Below, piece after piece: positions 7,694 to 54,349 of a stretch of DNA of 64,000 nucleotides. A program made the position numbers and the translations under genes. How positions within the stretch are numbered: the first letter of the stretch is position 1; each line of letters begins with the position of its first letter. Origin of the DNA: Chitinophagales bacterium (GTDB taxonomy: Bacteria > Bacteroidota > Bacteroidia > Chitinophagales > Saprospiraceae); NCBI GenBank assembly GCA_013297745.1, contig JAAFIM010000007.1:747-64746 (forward strand), in the 5' to 3' direction. The notes beneath the pieces were generated by a model that saw nothing but the letters and a program-made list of their open reading frames with translations, made no database searches and was not told the DNA's origin.

Positions 7694-10153
7694 TTATTCA
7701 AAAATAAGTCTCAACGTAAACGCATTCCAATCCGCCGCCGATTCTCCTTTTTGTCGTTGGCTGCGCAGTTGATTATCAACAGGCTTTTCCATATCTGCCA
7801 AAGGCAAACCATTTTGCAACCATTCGCTAATATCAAACCTGCCCCAACTAATTAGCACTTTTACATACGAAAATTGCGTTTTAGGGTTGCACTCCAACCC
7901 AAATACTTCGCTGCGAGCTTGAGTAAAAGCTATATTTTGATTAGTTGCCAAAGTTGTAGGTTCTATAATCGGCGTAATGCTGTAGTCGCGGCTCATATAC
8001 AGCAGCGCAACCTGCAAACTTTGGGTAGTATCCACTTGATTTTTATAACTCACCGAAGCCGCAAAATTAGCCACCCGCGCACTACCTTTGCTATTGGGTT
8101 GGGTTTGTATCAACAAAGGGCTATATTGGTTAAAATCTTGCTTAATGGGAATTTGATAGGTTTTATTAGCTGCCAAATCCTGTATATGTACGGTCAATTC
8201 TGCCCCCAAAAACGACTGCAAGCGGGCAGGGTGGGGATTGTGCAAAAATAATCTTTGTTTAAACATCGCCATCGTTTTCAACCAACCGCTCACTTCTACC
8301 GCTGACACCAAATCGGCTGGGCTGCTGGCGCGTGTCAAAGGCGTTTGGCGGGGACTGAGTAGTAAAAAACCATCATTTTGGCTGGCTACGTACACATCTA
8401 CGGGCGCATTTTCTGCTATGTTGGTATAAACGGGCAAAAAATTGCATAAAGGGCTGTCTTTAAACTCTGAAAAGTTGGGTTGAGTGCCTGCTTTTATCTT
8501 CAAAAACACCTCTTTGTCTTCAGGCAGTAGATAATCTATCAAACCCGACGTCCAAAATTCCTGATTTTCTACATTTATGGGTATAAATTTTAAAGTTTCT
8601 TCTAGATACTCCTTTGCGATAGCCGCCCAACCGCCCTTTTCTATCTCCCAAGCCTTACCATTTATAGAACGACAGGGGTATTTTTCGCTATCATTTGCCT
8701 TATTCTGCAAAATTCCGAACCGATACAGCAGTCCGCGCGCTGTAGTGGCGTTATTAAAATAGTTTTTGTACAAATAAACCGTGTAATTATCCGCGTACAG
8801 GCTAAATTCTGCATCGTCTTTGCCAATTTCTACCATATCGGGCATATTCTCAGCCAATAAATTGAGGAAAAAGGCGATATTTTCGTTCTCTTTGGTTGGC
8901 AATATGCCCACATTTAGCTTACTCGCGGCAACTACCAACTGTTCTGGGCGAATTTTGACATAAAATAACTCATTCCCGTTTGAATTTTGTACAAAATCGG
9001 GTACATTTTCCAACTCACAGAAGGCAGGGGCAACATAATTCACCCTCGCCACGCCCGTTTTATCCCGCAAGTTGCTAACTTCCACCTCAAAATGTTCGTT
9101 GGATTTCAATATCGGCAGCCCCTGAAGCGCGCCTATGTCTATTTTGTGTTTATATTCTTTGCTAATTCCGTCAAAAACGCTGATTAAATTATAACAAAAC
9201 TGCCTTTTTGCGCTATCTTGGTTCAAAAAACGGCGGAAGCGGGTGGTTTTATCCTCATTTTTGACATAAAGGCTGGGCGTTTGGGGAAACCCTTTTTCTA
9301 TAACCATTCTTAGCCTAATTTCTAACTCGTGGTAGCTGATATTTCCTGCGGTTATTTTCAACAATTTGCATAAATTGGTGGTAAAAATACCGCTTGGGCT
9401 GCCCGTTTCTTTGGTTTCATACGCACATTCGCTGTAGGCGCAAGCGCAGAGGTGTATATGGGGTGCTTCAGGCACCATTTTTTCAAAAGTTTGGGGCGTT
9501 ATTTGGGTAGAATTTTGGGTATTTTGTCGGTTTAAATTGCGGGTTATCTCTTCTGGGAAAGATTCGTACTGATTACTATCTCTTTTCTGCCCAAAGTTGG
9601 GGTGATTTCGGGGCAAAATTTCCCTTTTTTGGTAATTATCCGATTTCAAATCCTCCCCATAAGCGCGGGTGGCGCGTTCAGAATGGCAAGAATCTTGTAT
9701 GAATATAATCTCCACTTCTTTTTTATACATCAAACTGAATAATTGTCTAATCTCTACACTCAAAATATCAAAAATGGGTTTTCCCGCTTCAATAACCCCA
9801 CTATCACAGGGTACTAATGTGGATAAATAGCCCGTAGCCGATTGAAAATAAGGGTCGGCTTTCTCTTGCGAGCCGTGTCCAGCATAAAATAGGCAAAAAA
9901 TATCCCCTTTTTGTAATAAATTGATATGTTGTTGGATAGCCAGCAGTATATTCCTGCGGGTGGGTAAAGCGGTTTCGTTATTTTGGTGAGAACTGTACAA
10001 TTTTACCGTTTTTTGCTGATAAGTGTTTTTATCAATGTACAAATTGGCACAGGACAAAAAGGCTTCTGCATCGTGGATACAGCCGTATAAATTGCTTATT
10101 TTATCGTGTTGATATTTGTTGATAGCTATAGCTAAAGTATAAAATGTGGGCAT
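7694..10153 (-). CDS. Caspase-like (peptidase C14) domain protein with ~500-aa uncharacterised C-terminal region
   Basis: The N-terminal ~300 aa carry a caspase His-Cys dyad in canonical context: FYAGHGS (His) and IQDSCHSE (Cys). The remainder has no recognisable motifs. Confidence 0.7.
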   Translation of the reverse strand: MPTFYTLAIAINKYQHDKISNLYGCIHDAEAFLSCANLYIDKNTYQQKTVKLYSSHQNNETALPTRRNILLAIQQHINLLQKGDIFCLFYAGHGSQEKADPYFQSATGYLSTLVPCDSGVIEAGKPIFDILSVEIRQLFSLMYKKEVEIIFIQDSCHSERATRAYGEDLKSDNYQKREILPRNHPNFGQKRDSNQYESFPEEITRNLNRQNTQNSTQITPQTFEKMVPEAPHIHLCACAYSECAYETKETGSPSGIFTTNLCKLLKITAGNISYHELEIRLRMVIEKGFPQTPSLYVKNEDKTTRFRRFLNQDSAKRQFCYNLISVFDGISKEYKHKIDIGALQGLPILKSNEHFEVEVSNLRDKTGVARVNYVAPAFCELENVPDFVQNSNGNELFYVKIRPEQLVVAASKLNVGILPTKENENIAFFLNLLAENMPDMVEIGKDDAEFSLYADNYTVYLYKNYFNNATTARGLLYRFGILQNKANDSEKYPCRSINGKAWEIEKGGWAAIAKEYLEETLKFIPINVENQEFWTSGLIDYLLPEDKEVFLKIKAGTQPNFSEFKDSPLCNFLPVYTNIAENAPVDVYVASQNDGFLLLSPRQTPLTRASSPADLVSAVEVSGWLKTMAMFKQRLFLHNPHPARLQSFLGAELTVHIQDLAANKTYQIPIKQDFNQYSPLLIQTQPNSKGSARVANFAASVSYKNQVDTTQSLQVALLYMSRDYSITPIIEPTTLATNQNIAFTQARSEVFGLECNPKTQFSYVKVLISWGRFDISEWLQNGLPLADMEKPVDNQLRSQRQKGESAADWNAFTLRLIFE

Positions 10154-12163: not shown

Positions 12164-13084
12164 TTATGGTTTGAATTTTTTGTCTATAAATGCGCGCTCT
12201 TCATCAGTTAATTGTTCGCGGGTCATACTCTCTTTTCCGCCATTTTCATTTGGTTTTTTGTTTTTTCCTCCTGTGATATGAAACCCGTGGAAAGTAAAAG
12301 AATTGACATCATTTAGCTCTTTACTGTTGTACTTAAAAATAAGATAACAGCCTTTTTCTTCGTCCCAAACTGCTAGAGTGGAATCCTTTATTTGTATAGC
12401 TTTTTGTAGTAGGTTATTAGTAATTTTTTCTTTTTCTTCGCTTTCATTATATAAAAGTGGGCTAATCCATTGGCCTTTCTCTTGCCTTGCAAATTCAGCA
12501 CGATGGTGTTTATCACAATACTCAAAAACTCTAGGCTGGCGATTCTTTTTTAACCAATTTCGTAAATCACTTTCGTTACCAACTATATCAATTTTAACTA
12601 AAATAGGAAGATAAATAGATTCACGTAAAAAAGCTTCTTCATCTATTATAATAAGTTTACGAGCAAGTTTAGTATTATGTTCCCAAAATAAAAATTTATA
12701 AAAATTCGGTATGTTAGGCAGATAATATTCTATAAAATTAATGACTGCACTAGACCCAGAAAATTCAACGCAATACGCATTTTTATTTTGTTGTTCGTAC
12801 TCAAAATAAGTATGATTTTTTGAAATAGGAGTATCTATCCGTTCCATTTTTTGGAAAAAACTACTCACGCTGCTTGATAGCAGTTTAATATTTTTTGCTT
12901 TTAAATCTGCCATAATTTTTTCAACTACGTGATTTAAAATAATAATTTTACAATTTTTTTCAAAAAAAAGCCAGCGAAAAGTATCAAAAATTAGTTCTCT
13001 TGTTGACGTGTCCGTAAAAAGGTATGTATCATTTTTATCAAAGCCAGCGAAAACGATTAATTTTGTTTGTTCCATAATGAGCAT
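12164..13084 (-). CDS. Hypothetical protein, third gene of DUF262/ATPase cassette
   Basis: 306-aa ORF starting 6 nt after the ATPase stop. No recognisable motif. AT-rich. Confidence 0.5.
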   Translation of the reverse strand: MLIMEQTKLIVFAGFDKNDTYLFTDTSTRELIFDTFRWLFFEKNCKIIILNHVVEKIMADLKAKNIKLLSSSVSSFFQKMERIDTPISKNHTYFEYEQQNKNAYCVEFSGSSAVINFIEYYLPNIPNFYKFLFWEHNTKLARKLIIIDEEAFLRESIYLPILVKIDIVGNESDLRNWLKKNRQPRVFEYCDKHHRAEFARQEKGQWISPLLYNESEEKEKITNNLLQKAIQIKDSTLAVWDEEKGCYLIFKYNSKELNDVNSFTFHGFHITGGKNKKPNENGGKESMTREQLTDEERAFIDKKFKP

Positions 13085-13090
13085 ACTTTT

Positions 13091-14248
13091 TTAAAATCCC
13101 ACTAAAAATTCCCTATCAATATCCATTTGGTCAAAAAAACCACTTGGTGCATCTTTTATCCAATATCCTTCCACTATCGGCACGTGAATAGTTCTTGCTT
13201 CTTGGCTATTTTCATCGCGGTCTATGTAATAAATGGCCACATTATCGGGGCTTATGCCTTTTTTATCTTCAGCAAATTTTTTGCAAGCAACCAAAATACC
13301 ATTGATGAGGTGGTCGCTGTGGGTTTCTACCACCACTTGTACGCCCGCCTGTGCAGCGAGAGCTATTAATTCGGCAAGTTTAGCTTGTCCGCTGGGGTGG
13401 ATATGCGCCTCAGGATTTTCTAATAAAACCAAACCATCTTTGGGCGTAGCCAATAGAGCTAATACCACAGGCAAAGCATAAGAAATACCAAAGCCCACGT
13501 TTTGGGGTTTGTATTCAAGCGATGTAATAAGCCCTGCGGTTCTAAATCTAAAATTAAGTTTCAAAAAATCTTTATTATCAATAATGACCGCTTCAACACC
13601 TTCACTTATTTCTCCAAGCCAAGCGTTTACGTTTGAGGATAAATGTAAGTCATCTGCTTTTTCGTGTTTTAGTTGTATGTTAGCAAGTTCTTTGTTACCG
13701 TTAATACTTAAAACGTGTATTGCGTATTCTGCTTTTCCTTGTTTGTGAGAAATTTGACCTTTCTTTTCAGCAATTCGCCAACTTCTTGAATGGGTTTCTT
13801 TTGGTCCAATATGTTCAGTGGCAATATATTGAAATGCTAGACTTTCACTAAATAAAGCCGCTTTGATAGGAGCAAGAATTTTAGAATCTACACTTAATTC
13901 TAAATTATCTACGCTTTTGTCTACTTCATTATTGGGCAGCACAGGGAATACAAATTTGACATAATGATTTATATTGCTATCAAATTGTAAATCAAAAGCG
14001 ATAAAATTATCTTCAGCATATTCGCACAAAGCATCTTTAGCGTTGCCGACATTTACCAAGTCTTCGTTAAGCACCAAACCTTCTTGGAAAGAAGAACTTT
14101 TTAAATAAGATTGCCGCAATAATAATAAACTTTGTATAATGGAAGATTTACCTGCTCCATTTTTGCCTGTAACAACAGTCAAAGGTTTGCAAGTTAGTTC
14201 TGTATTGAGGTGTGATTTGTAATTTTGAATTTTTAGTTTTGTTATCAT
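13091..14248 (-). CDS. ABC-type/AAA_21-family ATPase (DUF3696-like C-terminus)
   Basis: Walker A VTGKNGAGKSS, Walker B/D-loop VLLENPEAHIHP, H-loop VETHSDHL. Its ATG overlaps the upstream stop in an ATGA quartet. Confidence 0.75.
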   Translation of the reverse strand: MITKLKIQNYKSHLNTELTCKPLTVVTGKNGAGKSSIIQSLLLLRQSYLKSSSFQEGLVLNEDLVNVGNAKDALCEYAEDNFIAFDLQFDSNINHYVKFVFPVLPNNEVDKSVDNLELSVDSKILAPIKAALFSESLAFQYIATEHIGPKETHSRSWRIAEKKGQISHKQGKAEYAIHVLSINGNKELANIQLKHEKADDLHLSSNVNAWLGEISEGVEAVIIDNKDFLKLNFRFRTAGLITSLEYKPQNVGFGISYALPVVLALLATPKDGLVLLENPEAHIHPSGQAKLAELIALAAQAGVQVVVETHSDHLINGILVACKKFAEDKKGISPDNVAIYYIDRDENSQEARTIHVPIVEGYWIKDAPSGFFDQMDIDREFLVGF

Positions 14249-15624
14249 AGTGCAAGTGTTTTGTCAATAATTTCTTTAATTTTTTCGTATCTTATTAGCA
14301 CATTTTGCTTGTGTCCTGTGCCTGTAGTGATGCTGTACGTAAAGTTTTTAGAACCTTGATTATCATTAAATAACTTTACAAACAAAAGATTAAAGTCTTG
14401 TTTGTATTGAACAATTTTTTGCTGTTCTTCTTTACTCAAACGCGCAAAAGAAACAGTTAGTACTTCAAATAAAGCCTTATTGATTGGATTGCGTTTTTTC
14501 TCTGAAATATCAAATCTTTTTCTAAAAGCATAATCCCCAAAAATTTTGCTAAGCGTGTTTATTGTTTCTTCAAACTTTTTTTCGATTTCCAATAAAGTAT
14601 TTTTGTCTGTATTAGTAATTTTTTTCATAACCTTATTTAAAAAACCGTCCATATCTGCTTGGTATTCGCTGTGTGGCAACAAATAAAAAGCTAGAAAACG
14701 AGTTATAAAATCGCAGTCTTCCATACGTTCGGAAGCAATAGCGTTATTGGTAATATCCAAAAAATGCGCGGAACTTGCTAATTTATTTATAAAAGTTGAT
14801 GCTTCTCTTGAATTAAGCGCGTGGCGAATTTCTTGGTCAGTGAGTAATAACCCACTAGTATTAATTCGTTTAAAAAGGTTAAATTTAACGACATCAGGCG
14901 AACTTGCGCTAACAATATAAGCAGTAATTGAAAACTCCTCTATCCTTGCGCGAAGGCTAGGACTTAGTTCCTTAAATGTTTTGTTTTTTAATCCTTGTGC
15001 ATTAAGATACTCTAAACCTTGCAATTTTAAAAAATCTTTATTTTTTCCATCTCCTTTTCCTAAAATAAAATGACTTATGGCGCTTATTCGCTGAAGCCCA
15101 TCTACCACTTGATAAACCCCATTTTCAATTTCCACAAAATAAAAAGCTGGTAATGGAAATGATAATAAAATTGATTCAATAAGTTGACTTTTTTGAGAAA
15201 AATTCCAAAGATGTGCTTTGCGTTGATAGGGCGGATTTAAGTCTATCAGTTTACTTTTTATTCTTGATATAATGTTAGAGATTACCATAGGTTTAACATC
15301 TATTCTAACATCTTTAGGATTTAGAAAAACATTTCCTACATTATCACTTTCATAGTTTTCTAGAAATTCTATTTCTTTTTCTACTTTTTGGCTTTTGAAA
15401 GAATAACAATTTGACTTACCTATTTTAATACAATCTATACTTTCGTCATATACTCTCATTTCTGGATTGGTTAAAGTGCTCAATGCAGAAGACACAGAGG
15501 CTTGCGGAGTTTTAGTTTCAAATATAAAATAATTCTTTTCCACAATGTAATCGTGGATTTCTTTAGCAGTAGCTGGTCTGCCTATTTCCTCCATTGCTAT
15601 TTTGCACGCTTCAATAAGTGTCAT
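14245..15624 (-). CDS. DUF262 (ParB/Srx-like, DGxQR) domain protein with N-terminal HTH (HARE-HTH-like)
   Basis: VVDGLQRISAI is a DGQQR-type motif. The N-terminal ~70 aa are a winged-helix-like module. 459 aa. Confidence 0.7.
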   Translation of the reverse strand: MTLIEACKIAMEEIGRPATAKEIHDYIVEKNYFIFETKTPQASVSSALSTLTNPEMRVYDESIDCIKIGKSNCYSFKSQKVEKEIEFLENYESDNVGNVFLNPKDVRIDVKPMVISNIISRIKSKLIDLNPPYQRKAHLWNFSQKSQLIESILLSFPLPAFYFVEIENGVYQVVDGLQRISAISHFILGKGDGKNKDFLKLQGLEYLNAQGLKNKTFKELSPSLRARIEEFSITAYIVSASSPDVVKFNLFKRINTSGLLLTDQEIRHALNSREASTFINKLASSAHFLDITNNAIASERMEDCDFITRFLAFYLLPHSEYQADMDGFLNKVMKKITNTDKNTLLEIEKKFEETINTLSKIFGDYAFRKRFDISEKKRNPINKALFEVLTVSFARLSKEEQQKIVQYKQDFNLLFVKLFNDNQGSKNFTYSITTGTGHKQNVLIRYEKIKEIIDKTLAL

Positions 15625-17484: not shown

Positions 17485-18186
17485 TTAACCCTCCACATTG
17501 CAGCGTTTAGCTATAAATTGATGTTTTAGGGCGTCAGCTATTTGTGTGCCTTCACATTGCAATTCTGTAAGTTGGCTTCTAGAAGGGTCTTTAGAAGGGT
17601 GTTGTAAAAAAGGGGCTAAAATAGCAAATAAGTCATTATCGCTTATACGCCCGCAATTCGTTAGGTTCAAAGTTGTTAAACTTGTGCAGCCTGATAAATC
17701 CAAGGTTGTTAAATTTGTGCAACGCGATAAATCTAAAGTTGTTAAGGCTTTACATCCCGACAAGTCTAATTGAGTTAATCCAACAAGACCACTAAAATTT
17801 ACTACGTTTAAATGCTCTAGTGAAGTTATTTGCATAGTGGGTAGTTGTTGGCAATTTATAACTCTTAGCTCTTTCAAATTAACTAATCCGATTTTTGCAT
17901 TTATCACCAAGTTTTCTAACACTGGGCACTCTGTAATTATTAATGTTTCTAGTTTTCGTAGAAGTTTGATAGGTTCTATGCTAGTGATATTAACTCTCAA
18001 AAGATTTAATTCCTGCAATTCTCTAATTGCTTTAAAGAAGTCAGAACGCTCAGTTTGGATATTATGGGGAATAACTTGAGTAAAAATAGTTCGCCAATCA
18101 ATACCAATAACATTATTCCACCAATCCGTTCTCGCTTCTTCATTGTCTAAAAAATACGGAGTTTTGCACTCATTGTATCTGGCCAT
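17485..18186 (-). CDS. Leucine-rich-repeat protein
   Basis: LTTLDLSGC/LTTLDLSRC/LTTLNLTNC repeats. Paralog of 18224..18862 with a shared N-terminal W-W motif. Confidence 0.65.
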   Translation of the reverse strand: MARYNECKTPYFLDNEEARTDWWNNVIGIDWRTIFTQVIPHNIQTERSDFFKAIRELQELNLLRVNITSIEPIKLLRKLETLIITECPVLENLVINAKIGLVNLKELRVINCQQLPTMQITSLEHLNVVNFSGLVGLTQLDLSGCKALTTLDLSRCTNLTTLDLSGCTSLTTLNLTNCGRISDNDLFAILAPFLQHPSKDPSRSQLTELQCEGTQIADALKHQFIAKRCNVEG

Positions 18187-18223
18187 AATAATTAATTTTT
18201 AAGGGTTAGAAAAGAGCATTTTT

Positions 18224-18862
18224 TTAATCAAAAACGACACAACCTTTATCTCTAAACTTATTTTTCATAGTCAAGCTAATGGCGCGCGTGCCTTTGCAAT
18301 GCAATTCTTTGAGTGGCAGGGCATTATTCAAAACAGGTTGTAAGTCTTTGGAAATAAAGTGTTTAGAGTGGCTACAATTCAGCGTTTGCAAGTCCAACAT
18401 ATTTTGTAAGAAAGAAAATTTTTCCAAATTTTTGCAGTTGGAGAAATTCAAGAAGGTTAGACTTGGCAATTTGGACAAATTGGATAAATTATCGCAATTG
18501 GAGCAATTAAGCAGCGTTAGGCTGGGCAATTTGGTTACGCTGATGAGTTGGGGGCAGTTGTTGCAAACCAAAGCGGTCAGGTAGGGCAGATTGGCGGCGT
18601 TGGTGAGTAGTGGGCAATTATAACAAACTATAGAGTTGATGTTGTTGAGATTGGCTATAGCATTGAAGTTTAAAATGTTTGTATTCGGACATTTTAATTT
18701 GGTGATAGCAGCAATTTTTTCAAAATTCGGTTTTTCAACGGTACAATCGGCGTGTTGGGTTAAGATAGTTTTCCATTCGGGTTCTACATTTTCCCACCAT
18801 TCGCTGGCAGCTTCTGTATCTTGGAGAAAGGTTACATCGTTGAAATCGGCGTATTTGGCCAT
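18224..18862 (-). CDS. Leucine-rich-repeat protein
   Basis: NCPLL/NCPQL/NCDNL/NCKNL LRR-like repeats. N-terminus similar to 17485..18186. Confidence 0.65.
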   Translation of the reverse strand: MAKYADFNDVTFLQDTEAASEWWENVEPEWKTILTQHADCTVEKPNFEKIAAITKLKCPNTNILNFNAIANLNNINSIVCYNCPLLTNAANLPYLTALVCNNCPQLISVTKLPSLTLLNCSNCDNLSNLSKLPSLTFLNFSNCKNLEKFSFLQNMLDLQTLNCSHSKHFISKDLQPVLNNALPLKELHCKGTRAISLTMKNKFRDKGCVVFD

Positions 18863-18896
18863 AATGATAAAATATAAAGGTTAGAGAAAATAAAAA

Positions 18897-19610
18897 TTAT
18901 CTGTGTACAGAAGTGGGAAAGTATGGGCTAAAATCGTCGTTCCAACTTGGTTTTGATTTTACATACCAAATTTTAAACGCTAAAAATTGGCTTTCAGGTT
19001 GCAATTCTGCTTTTATTCTGTCTGCGTAGATTGCTTGTTCAGGCTTATTTTCGTTGTCGTAAAAATCATCTTTAAGTTGGGTCAAATCTGCCATTGCTTC
19101 TACAAGCAGTTTCCGCAAAGCGGCCGCTTTCATCCTGCTAGCGGCTGGAGGTTTATAAGTTGAGTCTATTTTACAATCTGCATTATAAATCCGAGAAAGT
19201 AATTTTACTGTGTTTAAAGTAGTTGGGTCAGTTTCTGTGGTAGAAATATCTACTTTTTCCTTTGGATTTTTAAAGGCTGTTAGGAGAAAAGAAATTTTTT
19301 CGGCTATCAAAATTTGTGAGTTTGTACAATCTAAAATATCGCTAAACGATTCACCGCTTTTCCGCGAGTTGCAATAACTACAAGCGTACATTAGATTATT
19401 CCAATTAAATTTTTTATGAGGGTTAGTATAACCGTTTGTTGTGTGATTTTGATAATGTTCAACTATAAAATCTGTATCAATTTTTTTCTCGCATAAGTAG
19501 CATTTATGATGAAAATCTGCTTGCAATCGATTCAAAACATCTTCATCGTCATACTTTTTTTGCGCTGCTAAAGAAGTGGGCGCAGGTTGGGATTTATGAA
19601 AGTTTATCAT
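18897..19610 (-). CDS. HNH endonuclease (PtuB-like)
   Basis: HHKCYLCEKK...EHY...NLMYACSYCNSRK is an HNH/His-Me finger signature. It overlaps the upstream ATPase gene by 17 nt. Confidence 0.65.
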   Translation of the reverse strand: MINFHKSQPAPTSLAAQKKYDDEDVLNRLQADFHHKCYLCEKKIDTDFIVEHYQNHTTNGYTNPHKKFNWNNLMYACSYCNSRKSGESFSDILDCTNSQILIAEKISFLLTAFKNPKEKVDISTTETDPTTLNTVKLLSRIYNADCKIDSTYKPPAASRMKAAALRKLLVEAMADLTQLKDDFYDNENKPEQAIYADRIKAELQPESQFLAFKIWYVKSKPSWNDDFSPYFPTSVHR

Positions 19611-21087
19611 AACTGCTAATTTTTGCTTGATACAATTCCTTAGTTTCGGCTAATAAAATTTTAATCTCAGCAGCGCGAAATTTTGGCATTTCTTGGAGTT
19701 GATTGCGCAATTTTTGCAGCATTTGTATATCTTTTTTCGTGGGTTGTTCTAAGCTCAACAAATTTTCATAGTCTGCTTTTATTTGGTTCAGAAAGTTAGA
19801 AAATTTATCCACTTCAAAATGCGTTTCCACTATCGCTTCAGCAGGAAATCCAACTAATGGCTCATTTATAAGGTTATGATTTTCCAAATCATAAACTACT
19901 GCGTTATCTATAGAGGATAACACATAAGGCGAATGGCTGCTTACAATAAACTGTATATTTGGGAAAAAACTGGTTAAAAATGGTAAAATTTGCTTTTGCA
20001 GTGCAATGTGTAGATGAGTTTCTATTTCATCGATTATTACTATTCCCTGTATATTCTCAGGTTCAGCATACCACATTATTTTTTTAAATAAGTTATCTAT
20101 ACCTTCGCTATGAGAAGATACGGGAATAGACCGTCTTCTATTTTGGTGTGTAGATATTGTTGTTTTTATTTTTTCAATTCTAAGCAAAATTTCTGATAGA
20201 ATATAAACAATGGACTTAAACCCGTCTGACAACTGTTGTAAGCCTACAGGCTCGCGGCCTGGTAACTTTACATCAAAATAGTAATTGCGAGAATCGAATG
20301 TAAATTTAAATTCATTTCTTTCAATTTCTGAAATTTCAAAAATACTGCACAAGTAACTTTCAAAGATGTTGAACCAATTTTCTACTTCCGCTACTTCATC
20401 TTCATTTTTATTTAGTGAAGAGAAGGCTTGCTGTATGCGTTTTTGCATCAAATAGTGGATAAATTGAGAGTTTGCTTGTTCTCTAATACCTTGCTCTTCA
20501 AATTTGAATGCCTGAGTTGATTTTTCTGTTTGAGGTTTTAGAAAATCAAAATCACGTTGTGCTGGAATATAAGCAGTTACAAAAGGAACTTCGTAATAAT
20601 CAATAAATCCGTAAACTAATTGGTCAGTTGCGGAAAAATTGATTTTTCTTAGCCAATTTTCACTATTTTTACCTAACAAACTGACACTACCAAGTCGCTG
20701 TCGAGCCCCAAACCGAGCCCCAAAATCAATGGCTTGTTGTTCAAACTCATTATCAGAAATATGATTTTCTAATAGATTGATGTCGTCTAAAGAAAGATTA
20801 GAGTTTTCTTTAGCTTTTAGTAAGCTTTGGTGACTTATTTTTAGCTGGGCTTTAAGAGAAGATGTGTGAATTTGGAAAGTGGCACTTGAATATTCATTAG
20901 TTAAGTCTTGCAATTTATCGCGTATTTCTTCCAACACGGAACTCTTACCACTCCCATTTTTTCCTGTGAGGATTAGGTGGCGGCGAATATCTTTACCAAT
21001 TTCTATATGAATACGGCGTAGGTGGCGGCATTTTAGTATAAAAATATCAGTTAGAAAGTACTGCTCATAAAGTCCGTCCTTTTCCAT
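19594..21087 (-). CDS. AAA_21/ABC-type ATPase (PtuA-like)
   Basis: Walker A LTGKNGSGKSS. Walker B/H-loop VIIDEIETHLH...SSHSP. 497 aa. Visibly AT-richer than the adjacent Fe-S gene. Confidence 0.7.
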   Translation of the reverse strand: MEKDGLYEQYFLTDIFILKCRHLRRIHIEIGKDIRRHLILTGKNGSGKSSVLEEIRDKLQDLTNEYSSATFQIHTSSLKAQLKISHQSLLKAKENSNLSLDDINLLENHISDNEFEQQAIDFGARFGARQRLGSVSLLGKNSENWLRKINFSATDQLVYGFIDYYEVPFVTAYIPAQRDFDFLKPQTEKSTQAFKFEEQGIREQANSQFIHYLMQKRIQQAFSSLNKNEDEVAEVENWFNIFESYLCSIFEISEIERNEFKFTFDSRNYYFDVKLPGREPVGLQQLSDGFKSIVYILSEILLRIEKIKTTISTHQNRRRSIPVSSHSEGIDNLFKKIMWYAEPENIQGIVIIDEIETHLHIALQKQILPFLTSFFPNIQFIVSSHSPYVLSSIDNAVVYDLENHNLINEPLVGFPAEAIVETHFEVDKFSNFLNQIKADYENLLSLEQPTKKDIQMLQKLRNQLQEMPKFRAAEIKILLAETKELYQAKISSYDKLS

Positions 21088-21089
21088 AG

Positions 21090-21881
21090 TTAAAGTCCAT
21101 TGCTTTTGACTATCAATTCGGACAAATCCAACACCATAATACTATCTTGGCGTTCTTTTTCCTTGATGCCGTCTTGCAACATTGTGATACAGAAAGGGCA
21201 GTTGGCGGCTACTATAGTGGCGTTGGTTTCCAACAATTCTTCGGTGCGGGCTGTATTGATGCGCTTATTCCCTTTTTCGTCCTCTTTGAACATCTGCGCG
21301 CCGCCTGCTCCACAGCATAAACCGTTGGCGCGGCTGCGTTTCATTTCCACCAAATCCGCGTCCAATTGAGCCAATAATTCGCGGGGGGCTTCGTACACTT
21401 CGTTGGCGCGGCCGAGATAGCAAGAATCGTGATAGGTGATTTTTTTCCCTTTAAATTCGCCCCCTTGCACTTTCAACTTGCCTTCATTGACCAAAGATTG
21501 TAAAAATTGGCTGTGGTGCAGCACTTCATAAGAACCGCCCAAGGCTGGATATTCATTTTTGAGGATATTGAAACAGTGGGGGCAAGCGGTTACGATTTTT
21601 TTGACCTCGTACATATTCAACAGCATTATATTCTGTTGCGCTTGAGTTTGGAATACAAATTCGTTGCCTGCGCGGCGGGCTGGGTCGCCCGTGCAGTTTT
21701 CTTCTTTACCCAAAACGGCAAATTTTATCCCAACTTCGTTCAAAATTTTGCACATTGCTACAGTGATGCGTTGGGCGCGTTGGTCAAAACTACCAGCACA
21801 GCCCACCCAAAATAAAATTTCTGGTTTGTCGCCTGCTGCGTACATTTCTGCCATTGTGGGAATAACTAAAGGCTTGTTCAT
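21090..21881 (-). CDS. (Fe-S)-binding protein with two cysteine-rich CCG domains (LutA/GlcF/HdrD-like)
   Basis: VGCAGSF...TACPHCFN and GLCCGAGG...ANCPFC motifs. Confidence 0.75.
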   Translation of the reverse strand: MNKPLVIPTMAEMYAAGDKPEILFWVGCAGSFDQRAQRITVAMCKILNEVGIKFAVLGKEENCTGDPARRAGNEFVFQTQAQQNIMLLNMYEVKKIVTACPHCFNILKNEYPALGGSYEVLHHSQFLQSLVNEGKLKVQGGEFKGKKITYHDSCYLGRANEVYEAPRELLAQLDADLVEMKRSRANGLCCGAGGAQMFKEDEKGNKRINTARTEELLETNATIVAANCPFCITMLQDGIKEKERQDSIMVLDLSELIVKSNGL

Positions 21882-22028
21882 AATTATTAGTTGTTAGTGG
21901 TTAGTTGTTGATTAGCAATAATTTGTATGATTTTTGAATAAAGAGTAAATTTTTGTTCTGCGGAAATAATACAGAATTTTAAAAATAAGTGTGTAATAGT
22001 GGTATAAATTATTAAAGACATCAATTAT

Positions 22029-22252
22029 AAAAACTTGTGTTTTGAAATTTTTTTAACGGCTTACGCCTAAAAATTTTTTTTCTTCGTACTTTTTGCAGGC
22101 GCAAAAAGTACCAAAAACGCCCTGTTTCTATAAACTTGTTCGCTCCGCTTGCTAAAGCTGCGCTCCGTCTCACTTCAGACAGTATAGAAACTCAACGGAT
22201 TGGTGTAGTTACGCGCTTCGCGCGATTTTTTACTTTATTTTTGTCTACTTAC
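22029..22252. repeat. Structured repeat family 1, copy B (inverted relative to copy A)
   Basis: Reverse complement of copy A. The terminal gtctacTTAc supplies the stop codon of CDS 22249..22470. Confidence 0.8.
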
Positions 22253-22470
22253 ATATAGTCTTTTAAATCGTCCAAAGGTTCGTTAAAATCATCAGGAATA
22301 CTAAATCCCTTGCCTGCTAAACTGCCAAGTTTTACCCCTTTAGGAGGTTTTGTGTCTTGCTTGGCATCAGGTTTGGCTTCTTGATATTTGACTTTCAAAC
22401 GCTGCAATAGATTGACTATCAGTTGATAATCTTCATCATTATTAAATTCTAAAATTAAATTTTTTTGCAT
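22249..22470 (-). CDS. DUF2281-like small protein (putative antitoxin-type family)
   Basis: The C-terminal FSIPDDFNEPLDDLKDYM motif is characteristic of DUF2281, recalled from memory. Confidence 0.45.
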   Translation of the reverse strand: MQKNLILEFNNDEDYQLIVNLLQRLKVKYQEAKPDAKQDTKPPKGVKLGSLAGKGFSIPDDFNEPLDDLKDYM

Positions 22471-53939: not shown

Positions 53940-54014
53940 GGGCGGTTAGCTCAGCTGGTCTAGAGCATCTGCCTTACAAGCAGAGGGTCACAGGTTCGAA
54001 CCCTGTACTGCCCA
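53940..54014 (+). tRNA. tRNA-Val (anticodon UAC); no encoded CCA
   Basis: A cloverleaf can be folded by hand: acceptor GGGCGGT/ACTGCCC, D-arm GCTC...GAGC, anticodon loop CTTACAA, T-arm ACAGG-TTCGAAC-CCTGT. Confidence 0.9.
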
Positions 54015-54078
54015 CAAACAATTATCAACTTTCATTTATTTTCAATCGAAAATAAAGTTTTCCAACTTTTTCTTCTTC

Positions 54079-54153
54079 GGGCGGTTAGCTCAGCTGGTCT
54101 AGAGCATCTGCCTTACAAGCAGAGGGTCACAGGTTCGAACCCTGTACTGCCCA
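54079..54153 (+). tRNA. tRNA-Val (anticodon UAC), identical duplicate; CCA encoded
   Basis: Identical 75-nt sequence to the first copy, followed by CCA. Confidence 0.9.
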
Positions 54154-54349
54154 CCAAAAGCTGTTTATACGAAAGTATAAGCAGTTTTTTTTTGCCAAAA
54201 AATAAAAAAATAGACTTTTGGCACGATTTTTGCTATAGATTGTGAATAAAATAGCTAATTTTTGCCCCAACGGTAACGTTTTTAGTTATAACCACATTAA
54301 AAGCGAAATATACAAACATTCAATCTCACCATAAACAAATTTCTTCCCA

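Follow-up and report, generated by a model that had tools for sequence, protein, structure and literature searches.

The Saprospiraceae contig JAAFIM010000007.1 (Chitinophagales bacterium, GCA_013297745.1) carries on its minus strand a ptuA-ptuB gene pair that we assign, with a probability of about nine in ten, to type I Septu, i.e. to the stand-alone, retron-free form of this anti-phage system. Its function in defence would follow by analogy with characterized relatives. The pair is a divergent new member of the well-known PtuAB family and not a new kind of system. The assignment is thus largely a matter of annotation: standard defence-finder profiles call the pair at once, and Septu is common and structurally characterized. 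Beyond this, the pair documents a divergent PtuAB branch in the Bacteroidota and is situated in a cassette that is compositionally foreign and varies between strains. All positions given here refer to the window, the 64,000-nucleotide stretch of the contig that was analyzed.

Gene arrangement and assignment to Septu

Gene ptuA (19594..21087, minus strand) encodes a 497-aa ABC-type (AAA_15/AAA_21) ATPase and is followed on the same strand by ptuB (18897..19610), the product of which is a 237-aa nuclease of the HNH (beta-beta-alpha-Me) type with a helical C-terminal domain. The two reading frames share 17 nt (19594..19610, minus strand), with the ptuA stop codon TAA at 19594-19596 and the ptuB start codon ATG at 19608-19610, an arrangement pointing at translational coupling. 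In homologous PtuA/PtuB pairs found elsewhere the genes overlap in a similar manner or lie about 1 nt apart. Upstream neighbour of ptuA is a gene for a CCG-domain Fe-S protein (21090..21881, minus strand), and only 2 nt separate its end from the ATG at 21087, which is the sole possible start codon of ptuA. Relatives of this CCG gene, with identities of 79% or less, place the organism in the Saprospiraceae, i.e. at the level of family. We found no minus-strand match to the Bacteroidota -7 motif TAnnTTTG between 20345 and 21784. Given the 2-nt gap and the lack of a promoter motif between the genes, ptuAB are probably transcribed by read-through from the CCG gene. Matches to the sigma-70 consensus, which is not appropriate for Bacteroidota, are modestly above shuffled expectation. 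An earlier note on this DNA had described a 497-aa ATPase overlapping a 237-aa protein by 17 nt, with the stop codon of an Fe-S gene 2 nt away from the ATPase start, and both the ORF coordinates and the junction agree with our gene calls.

The ptuA product matches the PADLOC model PtuA1 (PDLC00268) with E=2.7e-83. Of the 25 PADLOC matches listed, 24 are PtuA models, the exception being the model for the PtuA-type ATPase of retron I-A. Pfam AAA_21 (E=2.2e-17) and AAA_15 (E=2.6e-10) both score above their gathering thresholds. For the ptuB product, the PADLOC model PtuB1 (PDLC00331) is matched over its full length (aa 1-230, E=3.6e-50), and Pfam HNH remains below its gathering score (19.3 bits vs a cutoff of 21.4). 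The earlier note had proposed exactly such a search against PtuA/PtuB profiles, and the pair passes it. Homologues number 3,747 for PtuA at E<=1e-10 and 85 for PtuB. Because of the profile E-values (2.7e-83 and 3.6e-50) and these thousands of homologues, a chance pair of ORFs is excluded. In four independent genomic contexts the homologous ATPase gene is directly followed by a PtuB-like gene for 222-232 aa, and no other partner is conserved. The reading of gene order, sizes and coupling as PtuA/PtuB architecture, put forward earlier, is therefore borne out by the pairs residing beside homologues elsewhere.

Structural comparison leads to the same assignment. The AlphaFold2 model of PtuA (pLDDT 82) retrieves PtuA chains exclusively among the 50 best Foldseek matches in the PDB (50/50), including E. 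coli Septu 8eea, 8ee4 and 8sux. For PtuB (pLDDT 94, pTM 0.91) the significant Foldseek matches are full-length PtuB chains only, with TMt 0.63 for 9u9y_H and 9nnh_K and 0.46-0.48 for 9e90_B and 9e8z_B. A phmmer search of the PDB with the PtuB sequence gave no meaningful match; a profile of the PtuB clade reached E=1.4e-6 with solved PtuB chains of retron I-A.

ATPases of the AAA_15/AAA_21 type are common to many defence systems that combine an ABC ATPase with a nuclease, the Pfam name mentions AbiEii, and some sources call homologues 'ATP-dependent endonuclease of OLD family'. Membership in another such family (OLD, Gabija, PARIS or AbiL-type), or a homing endonuclease of the free HNH type next to an ATPase unrelated to it, is nevertheless extremely unlikely. 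A TOPRIM domain was not found by Pfam in either PtuA or PtuB, and the 25 PADLOC matches listed for the ATPase contain no GajA, AriA or Old model. In addition, PtuB profiles and fold match from end to end, including the PtuA-binding C-terminal helical domain. A homing endonuclease inside an intron or intein had been named earlier as the finding that would speak against Septu. Instead, the HNH gene forms an ORF of its own that overlaps ptuA and appears coupled to it; it lies between intact genes and not inside a host gene, intron or intein.

Type I-A retrons (Ec78/Eco7 and Ec83/Eco4; PMC12819146, PMC12673091, PMC12640716) employ homologous PtuA and PtuB as effectors, and the pair could in principle represent the effector half of such a retron (type II Septu), with reverse transcriptase (RT) and ncRNA encoded elsewhere or lost. 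Ec83 and Ec78 PtuA/PtuB are indeed among the best-scoring solved relatives of both proteins, by sequence as well as by fold, and the matching NCBIfam models carry the retron Ec78 name. We consider this origin very improbable. The gene directly upstream, at a distance of 2 nt, is the CCG Fe-S gene, and no RT-sized ORF adjoins ptuAB. Rfam recognizes no RNA family in the region, and only two tRNA genes reach gathering scores within the window. In PADLOC, the stand-alone PtuA model scores 2.7e-83 against 3.1e-31 for the retron model ATPase_I-A, the best non-PtuA model, and the PtuB model 3.6e-50 against 2.2e-9 for HNH_I-A. The NCBIfam Ec78 equivalogs NF041760 and NF041761 reach 99.7 bits (cutoff 500) and 28 bits (cutoff 150). 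Furthermore, Walker A of our PtuA starts at aa 42 as compared to about aa 90 in Ec83 (residue 36 corresponds to Ec83 residue 86), and the N-terminal extension of the retron type is therefore lacking. Stand-alone Septu PtuA features a hydrophobic residue, leucine, after LSDG (LSDGLR in E. coli), while the retron type reads LSDGQR (PMC12819146); the protein studied here has LSDGF. Relatives in other genomes likewise occur as RT-free pairs. Since RT, ncRNA and msDNA are all absent from the locus, regulation by msDNA sequestration cannot apply to this Septu pair.

Conserved motifs and a lineage-specific insertion in PtuA

None of the ATP-binding and metal-finger residues that are invariant in the family is missing from PtuA and PtuB. 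In PtuA, the Walker A motif or P-loop LTGKNGSGKSS (aa 40-50; 20938..20970, minus strand) contains T41, G42, N44, G45, G47 and K48, which are invariant in 60 homologues. It is followed by the ABC signature LSDGFK (aa 286-291; 20215..20232, minus strand) with its hydrophobic residue after LSDG, the Walker B and D-loop region IIDEIETHLH (aa 351-360; 20008..20037, minus strand; I352, D353, E354, H358, L359 and H360 invariant) and the H-loop or switch region SSHSP (aa 383-387; 19927..19941, minus strand; H385, S386 and P387 invariant). Helices are predicted for the C-terminal part of the protein (residues 427-496). The HNH core of PtuB (aa 34-84; 19359..19511, minus strand) aligns to solved PtuB chains. 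It comprises HHKCYLCEKK (aa 34-43), EHY (aa 51-53) and NLMYACSYCNSRK (aa 72-84) and thereby a first CxxC (C37/C40), the catalytic histidine H52 within EH, the structural asparagine N72 and a second CxxC (C77/C80) with subsequent N81 and K84. Across 72 homologues no variation is seen at K36, C37, Y38, C40, H52, W70, N72, L73, C77, C80, N81 and K84. The ATPase and HNH motifs quoted in the earlier note were all located at exact amino acid positions. A helical C-terminal domain is predicted for PtuB residues 129-230, and in the models this domain and the C-terminal helices of PtuA agree with the interface, a nine-helix bundle, that PMC12819146 describes.

A peculiarity of the ATPase is a 32-aa insertion (aa 309-340; 20068..20163, minus strand) between signature motif and Walker B, predicted to form a helix-loop-helix. 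It extends the spacing between the two motifs to 67 aa, as compared to 33-42 aa in 82 homologues, and is found neither in any of 15 aligned homologues nor in E. coli Septu PtuA (8ee4). A shorter, divergent version is present in the related contig L004, and judged from these alignments the insertion is lineage-specific. The model shows helices at 288-319 and 327-340 in this part, with pLDDT of about 70-89. Due to its position within the nucleotide-binding domain, the insertion could change oligomerization or regulation. Unique as it is and situated near Walker B, it could serve to probe how oligomers of PtuA gate PtuB.

This unusual insertion in a nucleotide-binding domain might also be taken as a sign that the pair no longer works and is the decaying or inactive remainder of a defence cassette. 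In the same vein, the surrounding few kilobases exhibit decay and turnover, with a PIN toxin cut to 21 codons beside an orphan antitoxin-like ORF, and sister strains can dispense with the cassette. Yet inactivity appears highly unlikely. Both ORFs are full length in spite of their AT-rich, stop-prone sequence, the family-invariant residues are all kept, the coupling overlap is intact and both proteins yield confidently folded models. In sequence L005 (95.8% DNA identity) the frames are open over the covered parts, and PtuA and PtuB are 98% and 94% identical at the amino acid level. At a larger distance (70% DNA identity), L004 maintains two open frames together with its own version of the insertion.

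Compared with stand-alone E. coli Septu, for which PtuAB structures are available (PDB 8EE4, 8EE7, 8EEA and 8SUX; Li et al., 2024, NSMB 31:413, as reported in PMC12819146 and PMC12640716), the pair shares the order of ATPase and HNH genes, the absence of an RT, the ABC-ATPase and PtuB folds and the hydrophobic residue after LSDG (LSDGF here, LSDGL in E. coli). Both pairs also have a helical extension at the C-terminus of PtuA and a helical domain at that of PtuB, predicted in our case. On the other hand, the stretch alignable by sequence search is limited to about 60 residues around Walker B, and our PtuA has the 32-aa insertion as well as a helical arm of greater length behind Walker A. The host belongs to the Bacteroidota and not to the Proteobacteria. 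Septu Ec-B88 from E. coli has the same architecture, and its essential Walker A lysine, Walker B aspartate and HNH histidine and asparagine correspond to K48, D353, H52 and N72 (PMC13096335). Cleavage of tRNA-Tyr and the abortive-infection phenotype were shown for the E. coli system only.

The nearest relatives by sequence belong to an uncharacterized Bacteroidota/environmental PtuAB clade (P0002-P0120 and P0132-P0214, including L086-L091). Here, identities amount to 33-40%, the closest non-self PtuA proteins being 34-39% identical, and in a set of 5.8 billion proteins the identity to anything outside the own lineage is 39% at most. Members of the clade also possess two-gene cassettes with overlapping or abutting ORFs that are wedged between housekeeping genes. 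They differ in the size of PtuA (363-440 aa vs 497 aa) and lack both the insertion and neighbouring genes for leucine-rich repeat (LRR) proteins. The original Bacillus Septu of Doron et al. in Science, 2018, is reported to consist of an ATPase (PtuA) and an HNH nuclease (PtuB) and to provide phage resistance. It stems from a different phylum, and the likeness, going by that description, is one of founding definition.

Proposed mode of action

Defence, trigger, substrate and stoichiometry as outlined in the following are carried over from E. coli systems with only about 16% identity in a structure-based alignment. By analogy, PtuA would oligomerize, as does the hexameric E. coli protein (PMC12819146), and its C-terminal helices would clamp the helical C-terminal domain of PtuB, possibly in a complex resembling the 6:2 PtuA:PtuB assembly from E. 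coli (PMC12640716). The clamp may keep PtuB inactive as long as the cell is not infected. Binding of ATP could contribute to this state, as it inhibits the nuclease in the 6:2 complex (PMC12640716), and nicking has been described as ATP-sensitive (PMC12819146). A phage cue would then free or activate PtuB; sensing of a tail fibre has been reported for one Septu system (PMC12819146). The active nuclease would cut host or phage nucleic acid and phage replication might be halted in an abortive-infection-like manner. [quoted passage not shown] Nicking of supercoiled DNA in vitro has also been reported for Septu. As the substrates reported for PtuAB homologues differ (tRNA-Tyr, ssDNA, plasmid nicking; PMC12640716), that of the PtuB studied here is not predictable.

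Strain variability and neighbouring LRR genes

Both genes of the pair are distinctly AT-richer than the CCG gene, just as the earlier note had it: GC amounts to 0.337 for ptuA, 0.349 for ptuB and 0.461 for the CCG gene, and GC3 to 0.267, 0.286 and 0.519, respectively, with values of 0.47–0.52 in core genes. Together with the last two codons and the stop codon of the CCG gene and a 31-nt spacer, ptuA and ptuB make up a strain-variable segment of 2,233 nt (18866..21098, minus strand). In three metagenome contigs (L001-L003) 45 unrelated nt stand in the place of this cassette, and the flanks share 97.0% and 97.5% DNA identity with the window (blastn); the junctions were read base by base. Target-site duplications or terminal repeats were not found around 18866..21098, there is no integrase or transposase near the cassette, and the distance to the nearest tRNA genes is 33 kb.

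The earlier note had proposed horizontal acquisition. Foreign composition and absence from L001-L003 are in line with this part of the proposal, but the change need not have occurred in the lineage of the window. Gene order in L004 is that of the window (69-72% amino acid and about 70% DNA identity), and in L086, the nearest other species (83.5% amino acid identity for the CCG protein), a Septu pair, with an identity of only 37%, is again located directly 3' of the CCG gene. In two species, a Septu cassette is found in this position next to the same core gene. Moreover, the CCG proteins of the window and L086 both end with NGL*, while L001 has NNL*. Gene order in L004, the position of ptuAB after the CCG gene in L086 and the shared NGL* terminus together suggest that old residence of the cassette, with loss or replacement in L001-type strains, is at least as likely as recent gain in the lineage of the window, and the first two of these points favour it over a recent insertion.

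Further sites were sought by two approaches. A scan of species genomes with the CCG protein returned 80 loci, and none of these (0/80) has PtuAB, glnS, LRR genes or sucA within 10 kb; they contribute no additional empty or occupied sites because synteny is lineage-specific. Two metagenome scans for the CCG-PtuA junction yielded no further spanning contig, only a distant, fragmentary PtuA-like remnant (L092/L093). In mobile element collections, full-length copies number zero in phages and one in plasmids (a Persicobacter plasmid, 33.5% identity). There is no strong signal of mobile-element carriage for this PtuAB clade.

Immediately downstream of ptuB lie two genes for small cytoplasmic LRR proteins, LRR212 (18224..18862) and, behind it, LRR233 (17485..18186), both co-directional with ptuAB. 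It is conceivable that the functional unit exceeds two genes and that one or both LRR proteins serve this lineage of Septu in an accessory role, as sensor or adaptor. The four genes run in the same direction with gaps of 34-37 nt around the LRR genes, and L004 (61-72% amino acid identity) keeps the order PtuA-PtuB-LRR212 followed by a second LRR-like gene. LRR233 has a foreign GC3 (0.282) like ptuA and ptuB and, like these, is absent from L001-L003. A role in Septu is still improbable for either protein. LRR212 has a core-like GC3 (0.469) and is present with 99% amino acid identity in the strains devoid of PtuAB. Neither LRR protein matches any PADLOC model, and none of four more distant PtuAB contexts (0/4) features an LRR neighbour. 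LRR233 has no close homologue (at best 34% identity over half of the protein) and hence no demonstrable recurrent association, and recombination between the two paralogues, whose 3' ends are similar, explains its absence in L001. Co-variation is documented by two independent lineages only. Just as improbable is a modified Septu in which the insertion at aa 309-340 would alter the way the oligomer is kept inactive and LRR233, possibly also LRR212, would act as phage sensor or adaptor. If true, Septu would here exist as a variant of three or four genes that includes an LRR module for sensing and is possibly expressed from the mRNA of the Fe-S oxidoreductase gene upstream.

Irrespective of the LRR genes, the two-gene Septu pair is part of a neighbourhood in which three segments vary independently within about 10 kb, i.e. 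presence or absence of PtuAB, the NsnABC alleles and the truncated PIN toxin. Nature provides here a clean example of a defence islet of very small size. Between strains with 99% identical flanks, the NsnABC alleles share 48-57% identity.

A divergent PtuAB pair of the stand-alone type

Two genes on the reverse strand, ptuA (19594..21087, 497 aa) and ptuB (18897..19610, 237 aa), share 17 nt in the ORF list and follow at a distance of 2 nt, from stop codon to ptuA ATG, a gene for an Fe-S protein with two CCG cysteine-rich domains (21090..21881, reverse strand, 263 aa, Pfam PF02754 E=2.1e-31). This is the layout that the earlier note had described, and every motif quoted there was found at its exact position. 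The assignment to Septu made in the same note was set as a profile test and borne out: the ATPase matches the PADLOC model PtuA1 (PDLC00268) with E=2.7e-83 and the HNH protein matches PtuB1 (PDLC00331) with E=3.6e-50 over residues 1-230. PtuA models make up 24 of the 25 PADLOC matches listed for the ATPase, the remaining one being a retron I-A ATPase (3.1e-31), and Pfam adds AAA_21 (2.2e-17) and AAA_15 (2.6e-10). The HNH Pfam match of PtuB falls slightly short of threshold, and the NCBIfam PtuA and PtuB equivalogs, which derive from retron Ec78, match weakly and far under their cutoffs. In a set of 5.8 billion proteins, a search at E<=1e-10 yields 3,747 homologues of PtuA, of which the closest non-self ones are only 34-39% identical and 363-440 aa long; among 85 PtuB homologues one is 94% and one 72% identical, and the others do not exceed 41-45%.

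Invariant residues of PtuA across 60 sequences comprise T41, G42, N44, G45, G47 and K48 of Walker A, G289 of the LSDG signature, I352, D353 and E354 of Walker B plus H358-L359-H360, and the H-loop H385-S386-P387. Those of PtuB (72 sequences) are K36, C37, Y38, C40, H52, W70, N72, L73, C77, C80, N81 and K84. PtuB is a Cys4 zinc-ribbon HNH protein whose catalytic histidine is His52, and its final position is occupied by Asn in place of His. AlphaFold gave confident predicted structures for PtuB (pLDDT 94, pTM 0.91) and PtuA (pLDDT 82, pTM 0.73). For the PtuA model, the 50 best Foldseek hits in the PDB are PtuA chains without exception, among them those of stand-alone E. coli Septu (8eea, 8ee4, 8sux) and of retrons Ec78 and Ec83. 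The PtuB model has significant hits to just four chains, each a full-length PtuB; every other hit has E>0.1. Judged by sequence, PtuA and PtuB are an intact, coupled pair of ATPase and HNH nuclease. The pair is real and belongs to the well-known Septu family as a new, divergent member; it occupies a small and variable defence spot on the chromosome of a Saprospiraceae bacterium.

We put the probability that this is a stand-alone Septu at roughly nine in ten. With the CCG gene as its upstream neighbour, ptuA-ptuB adjoins no RT-sized ORF, and an Rfam scan returned no retron RNA and only two tRNA-Val genes, 33 kb from the pair. These tRNA-Val(TAC) genes stand in tandem at 53940..54156 (forward strand), 139 nt from start to start, with 70.4 bits each. 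The retron-type N-terminal extension is missing from PtuA, in which Walker A runs from residue 42 as opposed to ~90 in Ec83, and the signature motif LSDGF resembles LSDGL of E. coli Septu and is not the LSDGQR of retron PtuA (PMC12819146). On these grounds a retron-type Septu was rejected. Four more distant PtuA homologues likewise reside in RT-free two-gene cassettes between housekeeping genes, in the arrangements YdjC-PtuAB-RuvC, hydrolase-PtuAB-MFS, aspS-PtuAB-valS and CCG-PtuAB. In one relative's contig (L090, 3955..12935) valS is flanked by two PtuAB-like pairs, the first following aspS and the second consisting of a 417-aa AAA_21 ATPase and a 252-aa ORF. Counting glnS near the window pair, aminoacyl-tRNA synthetase genes adjoin three Septu contexts, an anecdotal observation.

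Composition and history of the cassette

The ATG at 21087 is the only possible start of ptuA, since no ATG, GTG or TTG occurs between it and the point where the homologues begin, 6-7 residues further in. The Bacteroidota -7 motif is absent from the coding strand from 20345 to 21784, which together with the 2-nt gap suggests that ptuA-ptuB may be co-transcribed with the metabolic CCG gene. As had been claimed, the pair is AT-richer than that gene, with a GC content of 0.337 (ptuA) and 0.349 (ptuB) versus 0.461 and GC3 of 0.267 and 0.286 versus 0.519.

Identity of the CCG protein to its counterparts in Saprospiraceae MAGs does not exceed 79%. Three metagenome contigs of near-identical strains (L001-L003) encode CCG, LRR212 and glnS proteins each 99% identical to those of the window, in the order CCG-LRR212-glnS, and lack ptuAB and LRR233. 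Blastn aligns the flanks of these contigs at 97.0% and 97.5% DNA identity and sets the limits of the variable segment at 18866..21098; in L001 these 2,233 nt are represented by 45 unrelated nt. Identity ends two codons ahead of the CCG stop, where the window reads NGL* and L001 NNL*, and restarts 3 nt ahead of the LRR212 ATG; neither target-site or terminal repeats nor mobility genes were found at this segment. The order ptuA-ptuB-LRR212 is present in contigs L005 (95.8% DNA identity) and L004 (70%), and in L004 a second gene with the N-terminal 'EWW...W' motif of the LRR paralogues follows, so the four-gene order of the window is conserved there at 61-72% protein identity. The closest other species (L086 5115..7846, CCG 83.5% identical in amino acids) carries a PtuAB pair only 37% identical to that of the window directly 3' of its CCG gene, separated by an 88-nt spacer with a hairpin. 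This pair is likewise AT-richer than its flanks, the genes downstream are unrelated, and the CCG C-terminus is again NGL*.

The earlier note had called the pair consistent with horizontal acquisition. Foreign composition and the strain variability seen in L001-L003 agree with this view, but a recent gain in the window lineage is not established. Carriage by L005 and L004, the L086 pair at the same site and the shared NGL* taken together lead us to favour that in this group Septu has probably long been resident at the 3' end of the CCG gene and was lost or replaced in L001-type strains. With the L086 pair in view, the site could also be a recurrent hotspot of insertion or allele replacement, a less favoured reading.

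PtuA insertion and LRR paralogues

Among the features tested there are no signs of a new kind of system, and an insertion in PtuA and the co-variation of an LRR gene are the only, tentative leads toward anything unusual. The insertion (32 aa, residues 309-340) lies between ABC signature and Walker B, which are 67 aa apart versus 33-42 aa in 82 homologues. E. coli Septu PtuA is without it, L004 PtuA has a divergent, shorter version, and AlphaFold predicts a helix-loop-helix lengthening helix 288-319. The segment from Walker A to signature is also the longest in the sample (244 aa; median 203).

Downstream of ptuB, tandem paralogues occupy 17485..18862 on the reverse strand: LRR212 (18224..18862, 212 aa) and LRR233 (17485..18186, 233 aa), 31% identical (E=3e-19), with common motifs 'EWW..V...W..I.TQ' at the N-terminus and 'L.EL.C.GT' at the C-terminus, and neither matching a PADLOC model. 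LRR212 is core-like in composition and retained in strains without PtuAB. LRR233, for which the 5.8 billion proteins contain no close homologue, is AT-rich like the cassette (GC3 0.28), co-varies with it and is missing from L001-L003. A 27-nt stretch at 81% identity near the 3' ends of both genes (17546-17572 and 18288-18314) could have mediated the deletion of LRR233 in these strains.

Proposed mode of action and neighbouring defence-like loci

Predicted secondary structure contains the elements that form the interface in solved PtuA-PtuB complexes (PMC12819146), namely the PtuA C-terminal helices and the helical C-terminal domain of PtuB. By analogy, PtuA oligomers would keep PtuB inactive; for E. 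coli Septu, a hexamer-based 6:2 assembly and a nuclease inhibited by ATP binding are described (PMC12640716, PMC12819146). A phage cue, reported to be the tail fibre for one Septu system (PMC12819146), would then switch the complex on and the nuclease would cut nucleic acid. Known activities are cleavage of the tRNA-Tyr variable loop by E. coli Septu B88 in T6 infection (PMC13096335), plasmid nicking in vitro by stand-alone Septu and ssDNA cleavage by retron Eco4 (both PMC12640716). PtuAB homologues differ in substrate. Growth of infected cells might halt and phage yield drop in the style of abortive infection, as described in PMC13096335.

On the other side of glnS resides a complete second defence system, NsnABC (12164..15624, reverse strand), consisting of NsnA (14245..15624, PADLOC E=4.9e-117, GmrSD_N/DUF262 and HARE-HTH), NsnB (13091..14248, 1.4e-94, AAA_15/AAA_21 and DUF3696) and NsnC (12164..13084, 2.3e-11). 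It is AT-rich (GC3 0.23-0.27), and NsnA and NsnB are only 48% and 57% identical to their L001 counterparts beside a 99% identical glnS, which points to alleles having been swapped in situ. At 21908..22470 (reverse strand) lies a decayed toxin-antitoxin pair. Its 73-aa DUF2281 ORF (22249..22470, reverse strand) is 55% identical to an 84-aa protein ahead of a 133-aa PIN toxin in L001; of the PIN gene only the final 21 codons (21970..21908) are left, the rest being replaced by ~280 nt of hairpin-rich non-coding DNA. An 819-aa protein (7694..10153, reverse strand) has an N-terminal caspase domain (Peptidase_C14, Pfam 4.7e-17) and weakly matches the PADLOC 'caspase' model (1.4e-12), and its gene is kept in L001. 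Finally, a 414-aa protein with STAS and DUF4325 (STAS-like) domains (29316..30560, reverse strand) matches positions 106-394 of the 1,750-position PADLOC model of DrmA (DISARM) with E=7.3e-33.
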